A stretch of DNA of 64,000 nucleotides from Bacteroidia bacterium. GTDB taxonomy: Bacteria > Bacteroidota > Bacteroidia > AKYH767-A > 2013-40CM-41-45. Made by a program: the position numbers and the translations under genes. Below the pieces are notes generated by a model. The model did not search any database, was not told the DNA's origin, and worked only from the letters and a program-made list of their open reading frames with translations. Shown one piece after another: positions 6,933 through 47,849 of this stretch (position 1 is the first letter of the stretch; every line of letters begins with the position of its first letter). The stretch spans positions 125,192-189,191 of the forward strand of contig JBBRND010000004.1 in assembly GCA_038230515.1 (NCBI GenBank), read 5' to 3'.

Positions 6933-7024
6933 ATCGGGGTATTATTTTTTGTAACCATGAAAGGGTTTAAAACCTTTTCGGATTATTTTTCACTTAAACT
7001 CCCCGCAACAAATCTACAAACTTT

Positions 7025-7056
7025 CGTTTATTCAACACCCGTATGTTGAATAAACG
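7025..7056. repeat. Perfect 13-bp inverted repeat
   Basis: CGTTTATTCAACA-CCCGTA-TGTTGAATAAACG, just upstream of the TAGATTTG -7 box of ispD (minus strand, ~7009-7016). Confidence 0.85.
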
Positions 7057-7116
7057 CAACTTCCCAACGTGTCAGCCCCCTAACGGAAATAAACAACACC
7101 TTTTCTCTTTTACGTT

Positions 7117-7368
7117 TCATACATTTCTTTAGAAGGCACATGCAAAAGGAAAGTATAATCATACAAAAGGAATGTATAGTCATGCAAGTAAAATGTATGA
7201 TCATACAAAAGGAATGTACGGTCATACATTCGTCCTGAAGGTACATACAAAGGAAATGTTTGATCATACATTCGCCCTGAAGGTACATACAAAGGAAATG
7301 TTTGATCATACATTCGCCCTGAAGGTACATACAAAGGGAATGTATGACCATACAAGCTTTGTAAAGCA
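7117..7368. repeat. Tandem array A: 12 x 21-bp palindromic units
   Basis: Consensus TCATACA-N7-TGTATGA. Units start at 7117 and every 21 bp to 7348. 7222-7347 is a near-perfect 3 x 42-bp higher-order repeat. Confidence 0.95.
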
Positions 7369-7544
7369 TCTTTTTGAACTAAAAATGCCATTTTGTGAAA
7401 TTTCTATAAAAACTAATGCCCCCTTCGGGATTATGACTCACATCCCAACTCACAACATCTGACGGCTCAGCAATGCGAAATCCCAACTTCTACCCCACTG
7501 TAGCGGCAGAAAGACTTTAGGAGATGGATTTGCAGGGCTGCATT

Positions 7545-7580
7545 AAAAAAAAAGGACTGCCTTGCCAGCAATCCTTCTTT
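7545..7580 (-). terminator. Intrinsic terminator after queA
   Basis: Minus strand AAGGATTGC-TGGCAAG-GCAGTCCTT followed by a T-run. Confidence 0.75.
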
Positions 7581-7641
7581 CAAATAAATCAATAAAATAA
7601 TTAACCTGTTTCTTCTTCTCTCCCCCTTCAGGGCATTGGGT

Positions 7642-43932: not shown

Positions 43933-43947
43933 CCACTCACTGCTTTT

Positions 43948-44304
43948 CTAAATCTTCGGAATCAGTTTCATAATTTTTGTTTTTTGCTGGCGGGCTACCG
44001 GCAGTGTGCTGCCGTCTTTCAGGACAAGGTAACCGCCATTTCCGCGCGTATATTTTTTTATAAAGTCCGGATTTACGAGGTAAGAATGATGGGTGCGTAT
44101 AAAATGATGAGCTACCAGGAACTCTTCAAATTGTATAAGCTTGCGTGTCACAAAAATATTTTTTCCTCCGGTGATGTACACACTCGCATAATTACCGTCC
44201 GCTTTGCAATACATAATCTGGCTTACGTTCAGAAATTCAAACCCGTCAGCCACCGGAACGGCAATGGCATCAGGAAAATGTTTGTTGGTTTTTTTTGGTT
44301 TCAT
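43948..44304 (-). CDS. Stand-alone LytTR DNA-binding domain protein
   Basis: IMYCKADGNY, FIRTHHSYLVN, LPVAR. No receiver domain. ATG at 44304. Confidence 0.85.
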   Translation of the reverse strand: MKPKKTNKHFPDAIAVPVADGFEFLNVSQIMYCKADGNYASVYITGGKNIFVTRKLIQFEEFLVAHHFIRTHHSYLVNPDFIKKYTRGNGGYLVLKDGSTLPVARQQKTKIMKLIPKI

Positions 44305-44565
44305 TACTGAGATGGATTTAATTGATTGGATTATTTTTTTCAAAAAAAATAAAACTGCATCAATCAATAAAAATATTTTGGCGAGTGTACGTTTTCAATA
44401 GGCGGACAACTGCATTAAATATACTACCAACCGTACATCCGTTTCGACATGCTGCATACTTTCGGTATGCATGCGCAAAGCGTGCATATACTTTTGGCGG
44501 CATATTTTAATTGTGACAACTGAAAAATGAAACGCAGCAGAACTTTACTGAAAAATATTCAAGCA

Positions 44566-44722
44566 CCCGGGAGGTTTGTTGAAGCGTTCCACAAGCTTAT
44601 GGAAGGTTTCCACAGGTTTGTGGAAGGGTTCCACAAGCGTATAGAATGGTTCCATAAGCTTATGGAGAGTTCCAATAACCTTATGGAAGGGTTCCACAAG
44701 CTTGTGGAAAGTTTCCATAAGC
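44566..44722. repeat. Tandem array C: ~7 x 21-bp palindromic units
   Basis: Consensus TTCCACAAGCTTGTGGAA + 3 nt. Units at 44587, 44608, 44629, 44650, 44671, 44692, partial at 44713 and degenerate at 44566. Confidence 0.95.
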
Positions 44723-44760
44723 ACCAAAACACTGTTATTACATCAAAAATCAATAATATC

Positions 44761-44830
44761 TCCCCGAACCCCTGCCCCTAAAGGGGAAAACCTGCGCGCA
44801 GTTCCCTTTAGGGAGAAATGGGGAGCGCGG
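44761..44830. repeat. REP-like palindromic element, copy 1
   Basis: ACCCCTGCCCCTAAAGGGGAAAACCTGCGCGCAGTTCCCTTTAGGGAG. Confidence 0.85.
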
Positions 44831-44894
44831 GCAAATCATCACTTAAAATGTAAATTAAACAGTTAATAAATTAAACAATTAAACCCAACCAAAA

Positions 44895-45584
44895 ATGGCA
44901 ACATTTATTGAAAACCCTGACGAGTCTTTTGCATCGCAACTCGACACCTTCTGTTTAAAAATTGACACCTATGCGGCAGTGCTTGCCCTTGATGCAGCCA
45001 AGGTAACGCAGATTAAAAAAGACAATCTTTTTTACAAGTACACCTTTGCAGGCGCTGATGCGTTCAAAACATTTTCGCAGAACATGATCGGCTATAAGGA
45101 TTTGCTTCGCAGAGGTCATCTTGATGAAGTGCTTCCTGCATTTCCGGCAACGCCTGTGCTTGCAGCAGCACCTACGCTGGTGCCTGCCAATGTGCAAAAG
45201 CGTTTTGCCGATCTCATTCAGGACTGCGTGCGCAGCAACAACTACACCACCAGCATTGGCGAGGACTTAGGCATTCAAAAACCCGAAAGTCCTTTTGTAC
45301 CTAATGATGGTAAACCGAAATTTAAAATTGAATTCAGCAGTGGCGGGCATCCGAACCTGATCTGGACAAAAGGAAAATTTCAGGGCGTTGAAATATGGAA
45401 AGATGACGGAGCAGGATGGAAAAAATTAGACCGCGATTTCAACCCCGACTACATTGACAAAACCGATTTGCCCCTGGTAGGCACCAGCAAAGTTTGGAAA
45501 TATAAAATGATCTACATCTACAAAGATGAAATTGTAGGAGCGTGGAGCGTGGAAATTTCTATAACAGTATATGGAAATGTGTAA
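44895..45584 (+). CDS. Uncharacterised 229-aa cytoplasmic protein (helical N-terminus, beta-rich Ig/FnIII-like C-terminus)
   Basis: Long ORF with an A-rich Bacteroidota-type initiation region and no signal peptide. Motifs NYTTSIGEDLGI, W.K...GVEIW, P.YID, W.YK.IY, G.WS. Confidence 0.85.
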   Translation: MATFIENPDESFASQLDTFCLKIDTYAAVLALDAAKVTQIKKDNLFYKYTFAGADAFKTFSQNMIGYKDLLRRGHLDEVLPAFPATPVLAAAPTLVPANVQKRFADLIQDCVRSNNYTTSIGEDLGIQKPESPFVPNDGKPKFKIEFSSGGHPNLIWTKGKFQGVEIWKDDGAGWKKLDRDFNPDYIDKTDLPLVGTSKVWKYKMIYIYKDEIVGAWSVEISITVYGNV

Positions 45585-45591
45585 CGGAATA

Positions 45592-45663
45592 CCTCGCCCG
45601 CACCCCTGCCGGTGAAGGGGAAATCTGCGCGCAGCCCCCTTTAGGGGATGGGGTGTGCGCAGG
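45592..45663. repeat. REP-like palindromic element, copy 2
   Basis: ACCCCTGCCGGTGAAGGGGAAATCTGCGCGCAGCCCCCTTTAGGGG, in direct orientation to copy 1. Confidence 0.85.
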
Positions 45664-45688
45664 AAATTTGAAAGATAACCCCCCAATG

Positions 45689-45720
45689 AAAAACCGTTTC
45701 GTGAGAAGCGGTTTTTTTTT
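45689..45720 (+). terminator. Intrinsic terminator after the 229-aa gene
   Basis: AAAAACCGTTTC-GTGA-GAAGCGG-T9. Confidence 0.8.
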
Positions 45721-45767
45721 GTGAGCAGAAATGGGTTACATTTGGTGAACGAATTATTTTTTTTGAT

Positions 45768-47837
45768 GTGATGAAAAAAGTTTTACTCGGAGTTTTTATT
45801 TTTTCTTTTTGGTTGCAAAATTCTTTTGCGCAAGCGGGAGAGTGGACATGGATGCATGGAGACAGCGTCACTAATCAACCCGGCAATTTTGGAATACAGG
45901 GACTACCAAGCCCTTCGAATATACCACCCTGCTTGTATGAACCTTGCGAATGGACTGACCTGAACGGAAACTTCTGGTTGTATGGCGGAGCAGATGGAGT
46001 CAGCAATCAGTACGCTGATCTTTGGAAATATAATCCTGCAGCCAATGAATGGACGTGGATGAAAGGTCCTGGGACAACGGGCTATCCGGGCAACTTTGGA
46101 ATTATGGGTGTTCCATCTGCTGTGAATAATCCTGATTGCCGTTCGCATGGAATTATTTCGTGGGTTGACAACCAAAATAATCTCTGGATGTTTGGCGGTG
46201 TTCAATTCAGTTTGGGAGATTACAACAATCTTTGGAAATATGACATCGCCACCAATGAATGGACTTGGATGCAAGGTCCGGCTCTTCCCGGTCAGCCGTC
46301 TGTTTACGGAACCAAGGGTGTGCCTGATATTTCAAACCGTCCTTCATGCCGTGCAGAAACATCTGCCTCATGGACTGACGGTGCCGATGACCTTTGGCTT
46401 TTTGGCGGACAGGGAATTTCGATGAGTACCGATTTCATGAATGACTTATGGCGTTTCAATATTGCATCCAATACATGGACATGGATGAATGGTGATTCCA
46501 CATATCAGCTTCCTGTATATGGCGTGCGTGGAGTGGCTAACAGTACCAATAATCCCGGTTCGCGCTGGTCATATTCACATTGGAAAGACAATGCCGGAAA
46601 CTTCTGGCTGTTCGGTGGCAACAGGGATTGGCTTGTAACGGATTATCGCAATGACATGTGGAGGTATTCTCCCTTTACAAATGAATGGACATGGATGGGC
46701 GGAGATACAATACCTAATTCGCCCGGTACGTATGGAACGCTTTGTACTTTTGCTTCTGCAAATGTTCCGAGAAGCCGCTTTGAAAACCGCGCTTGCTGGA
46801 CAGACCCCAATGGTAACCTCTGGATGTTCGGAGGAATGGCTGTTTACCTGAATGACTTATGGATGTACTGTGTTTCTACAAATCAATGGGCATGGATAAA
46901 CGGTGACAATTCCTGGAGCGGAACCGGAAGCTGGGGCAATTTAGGTGTTTCAAGTCCTTCTAATAAACCTGACGGAAGAGCCGGGTCAGCGGGATGGACA
47001 GACGGTAACAATCATCTTTATTTATTCGGAGGAATAGGGAACCCGGGACGTTACAACGATTTATGGAAATATACTATTGATACTTCCTGTACACTTTGTT
47101 ACTCACCGGTTCAAGCTCTCTTTACAGCAGCCAATCAAATTTGCCCCGGTGCCTGCGTAGATTTTTTTAATCTCTCTTTTAGTGCCACAAGCTATCAATG
47201 GAATTTCCCCGGAGCCACACCCGATACAAGCACAGCCACCAACCCAACAAACATTTGCTATGCAAACCCCGGTAGCTACTATGTGCAACTCATAGCTGCC
47301 AATGCAACTGGCAGCGATACACTTTTACTTAGCAATTACATTACTGTTTATCCTTCGCCAGCACCACAAGGAATTTCGCAAAGCGGAGATACTCTCTTTG
47401 CAAATGCAGGAGCAGCAACTTATCAATGGTACTTCAACACTACTATTATTAACGGAGCAACAGAATCTTTTTATTTAGCACCAGCGATGGGAGATTACAA
47501 TGTAGTATGTACAGATGCGAACGGCTGCGAGGTGGAGGCGGCAGTGTTTAATGTAATAGCAGCAAGCCCCACCCAACCTCCCCAAAGGGGAGGAGTTGAA
47601 ATCCATCCTAACCCTGTTGGCGATATGTTAGTAGTCACTGGTTCGTTGTTAGTTGGAGCACCCATTGAGATTACAATTTACAATATGCTTGGCGAAAAGG
47701 TATTGGCTATTTCTCCTCTCTCCTTTGGAGAGGGGCAAGGGGGAGAGGCCGATGTTTCCGTGTTGACTTCCGCCATGTACTACCTGGAAGTAAAGTCTAA
47801 CAATAAAATTTTCAGAACTAAATTTGTGAAGCAGTAA
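45768..47837 (+). CDS. T9SS-secreted Kelch-like beta-propeller protein with PKD domain
   Basis: Signal peptide; about 7 repeats WTWM.G...WTD..GN.WLFGG...NDLWKY; PKD segment; IHPNP...KFVKQ CTD. Confidence 0.88.
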   Translation: MMKKVLLGVFIFSFWLQNSFAQAGEWTWMHGDSVTNQPGNFGIQGLPSPSNIPPCLYEPCEWTDLNGNFWLYGGADGVSNQYADLWKYNPAANEWTWMKGPGTTGYPGNFGIMGVPSAVNNPDCRSHGIISWVDNQNNLWMFGGVQFSLGDYNNLWKYDIATNEWTWMQGPALPGQPSVYGTKGVPDISNRPSCRAETSASWTDGADDLWLFGGQGISMSTDFMNDLWRFNIASNTWTWMNGDSTYQLPVYGVRGVANSTNNPGSRWSYSHWKDNAGNFWLFGGNRDWLVTDYRNDMWRYSPFTNEWTWMGGDTIPNSPGTYGTLCTFASANVPRSRFENRACWTDPNGNLWMFGGMAVYLNDLWMYCVSTNQWAWINGDNSWSGTGSWGNLGVSSPSNKPDGRAGSAGWTDGNNHLYLFGGIGNPGRYNDLWKYTIDTSCTLCYSPVQALFTAANQICPGACVDFFNLSFSATSYQWNFPGATPDTSTATNPTNICYANPGSYYVQLIAANATGSDTLLLSNYITVYPSPAPQGISQSGDTLFANAGAATYQWYFNTTIINGATESFYLAPAMGDYNVVCTDANGCEVEAAVFNVIAASPTQPPQRGGVEIHPNPVGDMLVVTGSLLVGAPIEITIYNMLGEKVLAISPLSFGEGQGGEADVSVLTSAMYYLEVKSNNKIFRTKFVKQ

Positions 47838-47849
47838 TTCTTCCTCCGT

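Follow-up and report, generated by a model that had tools for sequence, protein, structure and literature searches.

Arrays of 21-bp repeats precede a family of small genes in scattered Bacteroidota genomes and may serve as helically phased regulatory elements

Results

The window analyzed here is a stretch of 64,000 nucleotides from a Bacteroidia bacterium genome, and all positions given below count from its first letter. It holds a variable island with a LytTR gene, an array of 21-bp repeats (array C), a gene for a 229-aa protein, two REP-like copies, a terminator and a gene for a kelch-type T9SS cargo protein. The features are as follows:

43933..47849, no strand, variable island between the ndk and the DUF721-like/recF genes
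43948..44367, minus strand, stand-alone LytTR gene (Pfam PF04397, E = 1.1e-16)
44489..44496, plus strand, TACTTTTG promoter-like box of the form TAnnTTTG (Bacteroidota-type -7 box), from reading of the sequence
44527..44781, plus strand, 84-codon open frame that crosses array C and enters REP-like copy 1
44581..44722, no strand, array C (TRF, folding)
44756..44835, plus strand, REP-like palindromic element, copy 1 (nhmmer E = 2.2e-22; fold -35.4 kcal/mol)
44825..44894, plus strand, A-rich, G-poor leader that ends in AAATTAAACAATTAAACCCAACCAAAA directly before the ATG
44895..45584, plus strand, 229-aa gene (ORF list, homologues)
45589..45668, plus strand, REP-like palindromic element, copy 2 (nhmmer E = 6.6e-21; fold -38.5 kcal/mol)
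45684..45721, plus strand, intrinsic terminator (hairpin, then nine T)
45737..45744, plus strand, second box, TACATTTG, which precedes the kelch/T9SS gene
45768..47837, plus strand, kelch/PKD gene of 689 aa with a T9SS C-terminal sorting domain (Pfam)

All the items that an earlier note on this DNA had listed for the block 44489..45720 (box, array C, REP-like copies, 229-aa ORF and terminator) are present. The TACTTTTG box lies 31 nt 5' of the ATG at 44527 and 92 nt upstream of array C, and is the sole plus-strand TAnnTTTG box between the LytTR gene and the ATG of the 229-aa gene. Since such words are frequent upstream of genes throughout the genome, with a peak 20-40 nt before the ATG, the box by itself says little. 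The terminator, which a simple terminator scan overlooked, folds at -18.3 kcal/mol (z = -6.65), a value equalled by 0 of 200 shuffles. In Rfam, positions 45687-45717 weakly match the 3' end of a Bacteroides sRNA model. The kelch/PKD protein matches Por_Secre_tail (E = 9.9e-08) and kelch families (E down to 7e-29). A link of the arrays to the T9SS was considered and rejected: with at least 150 matches to T9SS tails in the genome, arrays do not clearly adjoin cargo genes more often than chance would place them there.

Three genomes of the same genus (G002, G003 and G004) keep the gene order FKBP, nrnA-like, ndk, then DUF721-like and recF. At the junction between ndk and the DUF721-like gene, G004 has ~300 bp of non-coding DNA and G003 has ~1.5 kb with HicA/HicB-like ORFs; in G002 only ~6 bp separate the stop codon of ndk from that of DUF721-like/recF, and because of this the whole ~3.9-kb block 43933-47849 is an insertion. 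The self-contained inserted unit that the earlier note had proposed therefore holds as regards the insertion and its empty site in same-genus genomes; its limits (44489-45720) do not, as the inserted block includes the LytTR and kelch genes.

The two REP-like copies share their orientation and are ~75% alike. A profile built on them gave 32 nhmmer hits, counted as 18 loci in the genome, so that the copies belong to a small family of dispersed palindromes and are no chance resemblance. They share with REP/BIME elements a short, GC-rich, imperfectly palindromic sequence and a dispersed, intergenic location; they differ in being few and in having no sequence relation to enterobacterial REP. The earlier note had counted them as part of the module, which is not supported, as they are absent from the other family loci compared; they are later insertions that lie outside it.

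Its homologues show the 229-aa ORF to be a real, conserved gene: one search gave 88 relatives, and another gave 924 cluster representatives at E ≤ 0.001. Its product, a predicted homodimer, has in the AF2 model (pLDDT 96.7) a helical domain that carries the predicted dimer interface (residues 1-130) and an FN3-like beta-sandwich domain (residues 133-229). The latter has the fibronectin type III fold by structural comparison (6pok_A, Z 10.6, rmsd 2.2 A over 86 residues; Foldseek E = 1.6e-04), nearly all of the best 50 matches being FN3 domains, and Pfam fn3 gives no match to the protein by sequence. For the N-domain (residues 1-132), there was no structural match above Z 5.9 when it was modelled alone, nothing at ≥0.9 in the ESM Atlas and nothing at E ≤ 0.001 in BFVD. 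The symmetric homodimer scored 0.83, against 0.01 for the best control, with at least 94% of contacts agreeing between runs and a partner pLDDT of at least 89. Among proteins solved as same-chain pairs, 20 of 30 attain this mark, against 1 of 23 among those solved as single chains; these counts hold only roughly here, as the prediction used our own alignment. Neither the 229-aa protein nor eight other array-preceded small families had a match in Pfam, NCBIfam, PHROGs or PADLOC, except for a CarboxypepD_reg domain in a ~305-aa family and weak noise matches.

Array C has a period of 21 bp and 6.8 copies (76% matches, TRF score 156). Its unit, GAAGGGTTCCACAAGCTTATG, consists of an 18-bp palindrome, TTCCACAAGCTTGTGGAA, and a 3-bp spacer, and the array folds at about -68 kcal/mol on either strand (z = -9.3 and -11.3 against shuffles). 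Contingency loci and VNTRs have near-identical units and vary in copy number between strains. The units here match at only 76%, and contigs of two DNA runs, both of them possible sources of this DNA, show no indel but break inside the array. On the array, Rfam returned sub-threshold microRNA-like matches only. The 84-codon frame encodes a heptad-repeat peptide (FVEAFHK, LMEGFHR etc.) that has no family match in the profile databases searched, and two antisense frames across the array are open as well; the 84-codon frame may be a uORF or may be open by chance.

A period-21, -42 or -43 array lies 50-391 bp upstream of the family gene at 24 of 25 homologue loci (in G016, G028, G032 and G037), and at none of the 25 was one found in the ~1.5 kb downstream. 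Upstream arrays are also present at 8 of 13 family loci of five distant genomes and at all six full-length paralogues in the source genome, which are only 25-35% identical; the genome-wide baseline is ~4.6% of called genes preceded by an array (166 pairs among 3585 genes). The array and the 229-aa family gene thus belong together, as the earlier note had supposed, since the homologues do associate with period-21 arrays, on their upstream side. We found no description of a module of 21-bp array and small gene in the literature. In G037, an array and a family gene lie between rpoB and rpoC.

The units themselves vary, and each paralogue in the source genome has a different one. The L013 and L021 proteins are 81% identical, yet their array units are unrelated. 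The G016 orthologue, 62% identical, keeps a TTCCrCAAGCTTGy core with one change on both arms, its unit being alike at 14 of 21 positions (~99th percentile of random pairs). At 34 family loci, the 70 nt before the ATG contain 47% A, 8% G and 30% T, with a AACAATTAAA-like word, and such leader words are also overrepresented in front of other small genes that follow an array. Upstream of the arrays, shared flanks were confined to two small groups (AATTAGG runs in G037, and ATGACCACCCC in L025 and L030).

The 21-bp array is not private to the 229-aa family. The source genome has 253 period-21/42 arrays, which also precede other small gene families and genes for T9SS cargo or secreted proteins, response regulators, HTH proteins and housekeeping functions. 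Array A, for example, lies between ispD and queA; a search of relatives for its seed showed ispD-queA spacers in G003 and G004 that are not alignable with that of the source genome. Clustering of 193 arrays at ≥80% unit identity gave 160 clusters, that is, ~160 unrelated units. No motif is common to all of these units, the best 6-mer being ~4-fold enriched and present in 13-16 of 193, and a conserved core with a variable spacer was seen only as weak clustering within units (mean z 0.8; z > 2 in 13% of 117 arrays). More units are self-complementary than expected: 67 of 193 arrays beat all 12 shuffles of their unit, against ~15 expected. Of 188 arrays, 46 have no gene start beside them, and the flanking genes are near-randomly oriented (49 divergent, 83 tandem and 37 convergent). 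The arrays show no AT or GC skew on the sense strand of the gene and no difference between sense and antisense folding, either genome-wide (43 vs 47 arrays) or in the family (18 vs 12). The possibility that the arrays are coding was tried and rejected, the peptides being unrelated and the open frames showing no sense bias genome-wide (84 vs 92 frames).

Array density tracks the presence of the family across the seven genomes sampled. All four family-positive genomes are dense in arrays (G000 40, G016 40, G028 206 and G207 35 per Mb) and all three family-negative genomes are poor in them (G002 2.5, G008 0 and G011 7.5 per Mb), with contrasts inside genera (G000 vs G002; G016 vs G008). At least two family-positive genomes (G207 and G119) are complete.

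The LytTR protein encoded beside array C is a stand-alone protein of 118-139 aa without a receiver domain; its likely start is the ATG at 44304 (118 aa, PF04397 E = 8.3e-17 for this form), and the LytTR domain lies 343 bp from the array. Seven of the 12 LytTR matches in the genome fall within 378 bp of an array, against an all-gene baseline of 12-16%, among them all six short stand-alone LytTR genes, which lie at 200-378 bp from one. At a G016 family locus, a LytTR gene of 136 aa likewise adjoins the array, and the G016 orthologue of the 229-aa gene, with its similar unit, has no LytTR gene within 1.5 kb on either side.

Discussion

We tentatively favor the reading that the array is a helically phased cis-regulatory DNA element, which at this locus the stand-alone LytTR regulator encoded next to it probably serves. 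Array C and the 229-aa gene form one copy of a conserved two-part module, in the order 21-bp phased array, A-rich leader, small gene and terminator. This module belongs to a package of array-preceded gene families for small cytoplasmic proteins, which seems limited to scattered Bacteroidota genomes that are also full of 21-bp arrays. As the units recur every two helix turns, bound proteins would lie on one face of the DNA, and those on successive units may act together on the adjacent promoter region. The lack of skew and of a folding difference between sense and antisense strands is as expected for duplex DNA. The upstream linkage, the excess of self-complementary units, the genome-wide position of -7 boxes between array and ATG (see below) and the short LytTR genes near arrays also speak for this reading. 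ARG boxes, the sites of ArgR, are 18-bp palindromes separated by 3 bp that occur in pairs and share a consensus. The unit geometry of array C is identical to theirs (18-bp palindrome, 3-bp spacer, 21-bp period), and the same placement of dimers on one face of the helix would be expected; unlike ARG boxes, the arrays here are long, each with a sequence of its own.

The binder of array C would most likely be the divergently encoded LytTR protein, which may control the 229-aa gene and probably also its own gene. Stand-alone LytTR regulators are reported to bind 9-bp direct repeats 12 bp apart, just upstream of the -35 element, the sequence of the repeats being unique to each operon (PMC6193735); this spacing would give the 21-bp period. 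Array C thus resembles LytTR operators (HdrR/BrsR of Streptococcus mutans; AgrA and ComE types) in the 21-bp centre-to-centre distance of its repeats, and LytTR Regulatory Systems in having a stand-alone LytTR gene beside the site. It should be noted that the known sites have two repeats, whereas the arrays here have 7 to 25 units over 140-500 bp, are often palindromic and mostly lack a nearby LytTR gene, and that the LytTR gene here, unlike in LytTR Regulatory Systems, is not followed by a gene for a membrane inhibitor. LytTR repeats lie 4-11 bp upstream of the -35 of the promoter they regulate; at this locus no canonical box was found between array C and the 229-aa ATG, the one box present lying 92 nt upstream of the array. 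LytTR proteins cannot serve most arrays, because ~160 unit families among 193 arrays face 12 LytTR genes, and the unrelated units of L013 and L021 mean that sequence-specific recognition would need very fast turnover. Also counted against an operator are the lone -7 box upstream of array C, the arrays with no gene start beside them, the near-random orientations, the sense-frame bias within the family (see below) and the G016 orthologue without a LytTR gene.

A serious, if doubtful, rival is a lineage-specific minisatellite process, in which mutation or recombination in 21-bp steps makes and replaces intergenic arrays of little function, the small gene families being fellow travellers or possibly agents of the package. 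It would fit a density that is a genome-level trait differing within a genus, the unrelated units of even 81%-identical proteins and the 160 clusters among 193 arrays, and the near-random orientation of flanking genes, with arrays beside housekeeping genes such as those around array A. Several loci carry two or three adjoining arrays with different units, which fits as well. A by-product, however, should not sit upstream at 24 of 25 loci and downstream at none, nor persist before paralogues of 25-35% identity or across the families of a phylum; moreover, there is no TSD-like flank, a unit copy downstream of the gene being found at 0 of 27 loci (≥16 of 21 matches), and we know of no mechanism of 21-bp duplication, which also counts against such a process. 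The BrickBuilt minisatellite MITE of Porphyromonas gingivalis is reported to be intergenic, to lie 49-591 nt from genes, to have promoter activity, and to consist of 19 copies of a single shared 23-nt unit with inverted repeats as leader and tail (PMC4596501). The arrays here are likewise intergenic tandem repeats in a Bacteroidota genome; they differ in their period of 21/42 and in falling into 160 clusters among 193 arrays where BrickBuilt has one shared unit.

A broader proposal, which we hold to be unlikely, is that a transferable Bacteroidota system reads or writes DNA with a sequence-independent 21-bp ruler, spreads hundreds of phased arrays, each specific to its locus, over the chromosome and brings small dimeric proteins with a helical domain and a beta-sandwich, the 229-aa protein among them, that build the arrays or assemble on them. 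If true, this would be a new genome-wide architectural or regulatory system rather than a set of ordinary operators.

It is improbable, in our view, that the array acts as a transcribed leader, with one transcript running from a TACTTTTG promoter at ~44500 to the terminator at 45721 and the array RNA, as a long hairpin or a translated 84-codon uORF, setting the stability or translation of the 229-aa message. Array C may indeed be transcribed, because the only canonical -7 box lies upstream of it, just before the array-crossing frame, with none between array and gene, and L014, L020 and L011 share this layout. The A-rich leader has a strand-specific bias (47% A vs 30% T), the G037 module between rpoB and rpoC would be expected to receive read-through transcription, array C folds at -67.7 kcal/mol, and frames across the family arrays are open more often in sense than in antisense (54 vs 35; 17 vs 3 arrays, p = 0.0026). 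Against this, sense RNA folds no better than antisense, the arrays lack compositional skew, and the encoded peptides are unrelated and of odd composition, rich in Cys, Trp and His. Genome-wide there is no bias towards sense frames, and -7 boxes lie mostly downstream of the arrays: of 166 array-gene pairs, 65 have the box between the array and the ATG (antisense background 16) and 16 have it in the 200 bp upstream of the array (antisense background 22). Two family loci (L028 and C20) also have the box between array and ATG.

The earlier note had seen in the 229-aa protein the best candidate for a binder of the arrays. Two kinds of known system would be models for this. Plasmid iterons (P1, F, R6K and pSC101) are direct repeats of ~19-22 bp directly upstream of the gene for Rep, which binds them. 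Partition centromeres include sopC of F, with 43-bp repeats, and parC of R1. As with iterons, a direct-repeat array lies immediately upstream of the gene; unlike Rep, the 229-aa protein combines a helical with an FN3-like domain, and no match to a winged helix was found (only FN3 matches are listed, for residues 133-229, and residues 1-132 reach at most Z 5.9), and the hundreds of chromosomal arrays have unrelated units and no replication context. As with sopC and parC, a long phased array adjoins the gene for a small dimeric protein (the dimer being predicted here), and many arrays here have a period of ~42 bp; unlike there, no partition ATPase is present, and the arrays are chromosomal and number in the hundreds. 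That the dimer binds its own palindromic array, as an autoregulator or in the manner of iteron-Rep or ParR-parC with a cognate array per paralogue, is very unlikely: the strict, oriented association, the different unit at each paralogue, the predicted symmetric homodimer facing an 18-bp palindromic unit and the core kept by the G016 orthologue would suit it, but fold searches found no DNA- or RNA-binding fold in either domain and the pI is acidic (5.8; family median 6.1), so that array binding is not supported; protein and unit similarity are uncorrelated (rho 0.05, p = 0.26, 494 pairs), and 253 arrays face 13 family genes and also front T9SS cargo, response-regulator, HTH and housekeeping genes.

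For annotation, the arrays mean that gene callers will call spurious repeat "proteins" over them. The array trait appears to be gained or lost as a package with several gene families of no assigned function, and the contrasts within genera (G000/G002 and G016/G008) make the question testable by comparative genomics. If the arrays are functional, with their spacing invariant at two helical turns and their sequence free to vary at hundreds of sites per genome, they would represent a widespread and undescribed mode of gene-control organization in Bacteroidota.

Organization of the locus

Sequence reading, tandem-repeat detection (TRF), and domain matches located each of the parts that the earlier note had described at this locus, and thus confirmed that observation:

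Features of the locus (window positions)
Upstream of array C, divergent: LytTR gene (domain match)
44489-44496: TACTTTTG promoter-like box (sequence read)
44527: start of an 84-codon frame through array C (ORF read)
44581-44722: array C, period 21, 6.8 copies (TRF score 156)
~44756-44835 and ~45589-45668: two REP-like palindromes (sequence read)
44895-45584: ORF of the 229-aa protein (ORF read)
45684-45721: strong terminator (fold -18.3 kcal/mol, z -6.65)
Downstream: kelch/PKD gene encoding a T9SS sorting domain (domain match), preceded by a separate TACATTTG box at 45737

Each unit of array C consists of the 18-bp palindrome TTCCACAAGCTTGTGGAA and a further 3 bp. The two strands of the array fold equally well (-67.7 and -68.5 kcal/mol), and two antisense frames through it are open as well. 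The REP-like copies are part of a small dispersed family (18 loci counted among 32 matches in the genome); none was found at the other loci of the 229-aa family inspected, and we therefore treat them as probable later insertions. A peptide in the T9SS tail of the kelch protein, ISPLSFGEGQGGEADV (C-terminal domain, 47700-47760), resembles a translated REP-like element, and a REP profile search gave no match at this position.

Linkage between the arrays and the gene family

A profile search of this genome (G000) identified 13 members of the 229-aa family. Each of the six full-length members is preceded, at 78-252 bp, by a period-21/42 array. Within 600 bp upstream, TRF detected an array for 9 of the 13 members, and a tenth, C2, has a degenerate array seen by eye only; the proportion for all called genes in G000 is ~4.6% (166 pairs/3585 genes). 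Among 40 relatives, the family was found in only four genomes (G016, G028, G032, and G037), with 9-14 matches each. The association with flanking arrays that the earlier note anticipated is present there: 24 of 25 loci (the exception being L037) carry a period-21/42/43 array 50-391 bp upstream, and none of the 25 carries one in the ~1.5 kb downstream of the gene. In a sample of 400 genomes from across the phylum, five carry the family, and such an upstream array is present at 8 of their 13 loci, one locus of the 13 having upstream DNA limited to 174 bp; one further locus has a period-22 array, and at one locus arrays are found downstream as well. The association of array and gene is genuine and old.

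In G037, runs of 7-bp words adjoin family genes (L013, L017, L027, and L037), with four copies of AATTAGG on the upstream side and inverted pairs (TTATGAG/ACTCATA or AATTAGG/CCTAATT) 3' of the gene. In G000, a fragment at C13:78333-78824 (minus strand) holds the C-terminal domain only (profile positions 154-228), and its open frame continues across an array of 198 bp that is related to the one at C31; this fragment is a truncated or recombined copy.

Location within a variable island

The same-genus genomes G002, G003, and G004 keep the gene order FKBP, nrnA-like, ndk, followed by DUF721-like and recF. The empty site sought in relatives was found in G002, where the stop codons of ndk and the DUF721-like gene are ~6 bp apart; the same junction holds ~300 bp of non-coding DNA in G004 and ~1.5 kb with HicA/HicB-like ORFs in G003 (L155, G003:C276, 1654-2985; HicA-like, 64 aa, and HicB/HTH-like, 131 aa). 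This kept order around a near-empty or different junction shows that window 43933-47849 is a variable island, LytTR and kelch genes included, and the junction itself is an insertion hot spot. Thus, of the earlier proposal of a self-contained inserted unit, the conserved module of array and gene stands, placed within an inserted block that is larger than proposed and takes in the LytTR and kelch genes. In G037, a period-21/42 array and a family gene (L030, G037:C49:2895-6587, at ~1011-2196) occupy the gap between rpoB and rpoC, ~48 bp ahead of the latter, which indicates that the module occurs at unrelated sites. We found no mobility gene, and no flanking duplication of the array unit at any of 27 loci.

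Arrays across the genome

By period, TRF rows over the whole G000 genome numbered 277 (21 bp), 182 (42 bp), 54 (63 bp), and 55 (84 bp), with only three at 28 bp and one at 49 bp. Merging yielded 253 array loci, 196 of them 84 bp or longer. Clustering the units of 193 arrays gave 160 clusters, with no common motif found, and in 67 of the 193 self-complementarity exceeds that of every one of 12 shuffles of the unit (~15 expected). Arrays are not private to the 229-aa gene: they also precede T9SS cargo and housekeeping genes, and small-protein genes from several further paralogous families without signal peptides or known domains; one of these families (226-237 aa) has an N-terminal domain in common with the 229-aa family (hhalign probability 95.7%). 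No gene starts beside 46 of 188 arrays, and the orientations of flanking genes are near random. Array A (window 7139-7354) lies between ispD and queA, in a spacer (6933-7641) that measures ~140 bp in G004 and ~570 bp in G003, neither being alignable with that of G000; intergenic DNA in this genus turns over quickly.

A different G000 repeat, of period 22 (unit AAACACAACAGTGTTTTGCACT, 7-18 copies, 88-96% matches), occurs at C31:47225-47538, C44:1-151, C52:16900-17289, C53:1-233, and C58:15105-15324, often at the ends of contigs; in contrast to the 21-bp arrays, a single sequence recurs at several loci. Of 437 first-look candidates in G000, at least 150 match the T9SS sorting domain, which makes for an unusually large set of secreted cargo.

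Possible role of the arrays

Three properties argue for a duplex-DNA element: the sense strand of the arrays shows no compositional skew, it has no folding advantage (43 vs 47 arrays genome-wide, 18 vs 12 in the family), and in 65 of 166 array-gene pairs genome-wide the -7 box, a Bacteroidota-type promoter word (TAnnTTTG), is located after the array and before the ATG, compared with 16 pairs where it is upstream of the array. Seven of the 12 LytTR matches in G000 have an array no more than 378 bp away, all six short stand-alone genes among them (two of which are possibly one locus assembled twice), against an all-gene baseline of 12-16%. Stand-alone LytTR regulators are reported to bind operon-specific 9-bp direct repeats, 12 bp apart, upstream of the -35 element (PMC6193735), which fits the period and neighbourhood of array C. 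LytTR cannot explain the ~180 arrays that have no LytTR gene nearby. We tentatively favour the reading that array C is a phased cis-regulatory DNA array, one that would be served here by the neighbouring LytTR protein.

Fast turnover of the units is argued by the missing correlation between protein and unit identity (rho 0.05 over 494 pairs) and by proteins that are 81% identical yet have unrelated units; in the G016 orthologue of the array C locus (62% identity), the CAAGCTTG core is retained at 14 of 21 positions, which is borderline only. We consider a lineage-specific 21-bp minisatellite process somewhat unlikely.

A transcribed leader or uORF is an unlikely explanation. What speaks for it in this family is the position of the sole strict box, 66-102 nt ahead of the array at array C and at three further family loci (it is downstream of the array in two family loci, and most have no strict box). 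In addition, A makes up 47% and G 8% of the 70 nt preceding the family ATG, and sense frames through the family arrays are open more often than antisense frames (17 vs 3 arrays, p 0.0026), a bias that is missing genome-wide (84 vs 92 frames).

ARG boxes, iterons, sopC, and parC are known repeat systems that serve for comparison with these arrays. Literature searches gave no description of the module; the nearest paper, on BrickBuilt, deals with a single 23-nt unit (PMC4596501).

Predicted structure of the 229-aa protein

The protein matched no family in Pfam, NCBIfam, PHROG, or PADLOC. Its 88 relatives contain no Pfam domain, and the few that are named are all 'hypothetical protein'; a search at E<=0.001 gave 924 cluster representatives, 425 of them at 1e-10 or better. 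The AlphaFold2 model is confident (pLDDT 96.7), and residues 133-229 are predicted to form an FN3-like sandwich (top match 6pok_A, Z 10.6, rmsd 2.2 A over 86 residues; Foldseek E 1.6e-04). Modelled alone, residues 1-132 reach pLDDT 92.4, with a best Z not above 5.9 against 48,161 chains and no BFVD match at E<=0.001. The protein is predicted to pair as a symmetric homodimer, with contacts through helix 46-75 and residues 95-102 (score 0.83 vs 0.01 for the best control; contact agreement >=94% and partner pLDDT >=89 across runs). Among proteins of solved structure, 20 of 30 one-chain pairs and 1 of 23 single chains attain that mark, counts that are rough only since a custom alignment was the input. 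Fold and charge (pI 5.8; family median 6.1) give no sign of nucleic-acid binding. The earlier proposal that this protein binds the arrays thus draws no support from fold, charge, or co-variation, and binding of the array by the predicted dimer is very unlikely.

Co-occurrence across genomes

Density of arrays 84 bp or longer per Mb of sampled DNA
G000: family present, 40 arrays/Mb (16/400 kb)
G016: family present, 40 arrays/Mb (6/151 kb)
G028: family present, 206 arrays/Mb (33/161 kb)
G207: family present, 35 arrays/Mb (14/400 kb)
G002 (same genus as G000): family absent, 2.5 arrays/Mb (1/400 kb)
G008 (same genus as G016): family absent, 0 arrays/Mb (0/400 kb)
G011: family absent, 7.5 arrays/Mb (3/400 kb)

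Three other array-preceded families have a near-identical phyletic pattern among the 40 relatives: besides G000, the 317-aa family is found in exactly G016, G028, G032, and G037, and the 247-aa family in the same four relatives plus one G012 match with an internal stop, while the 243-aa family is found in G000 and G016 only. Tallies over relatives include the unpublished genome G038, counted as lacking the small families, and no claim depends on it. The family and the arrays are a genome-level package.
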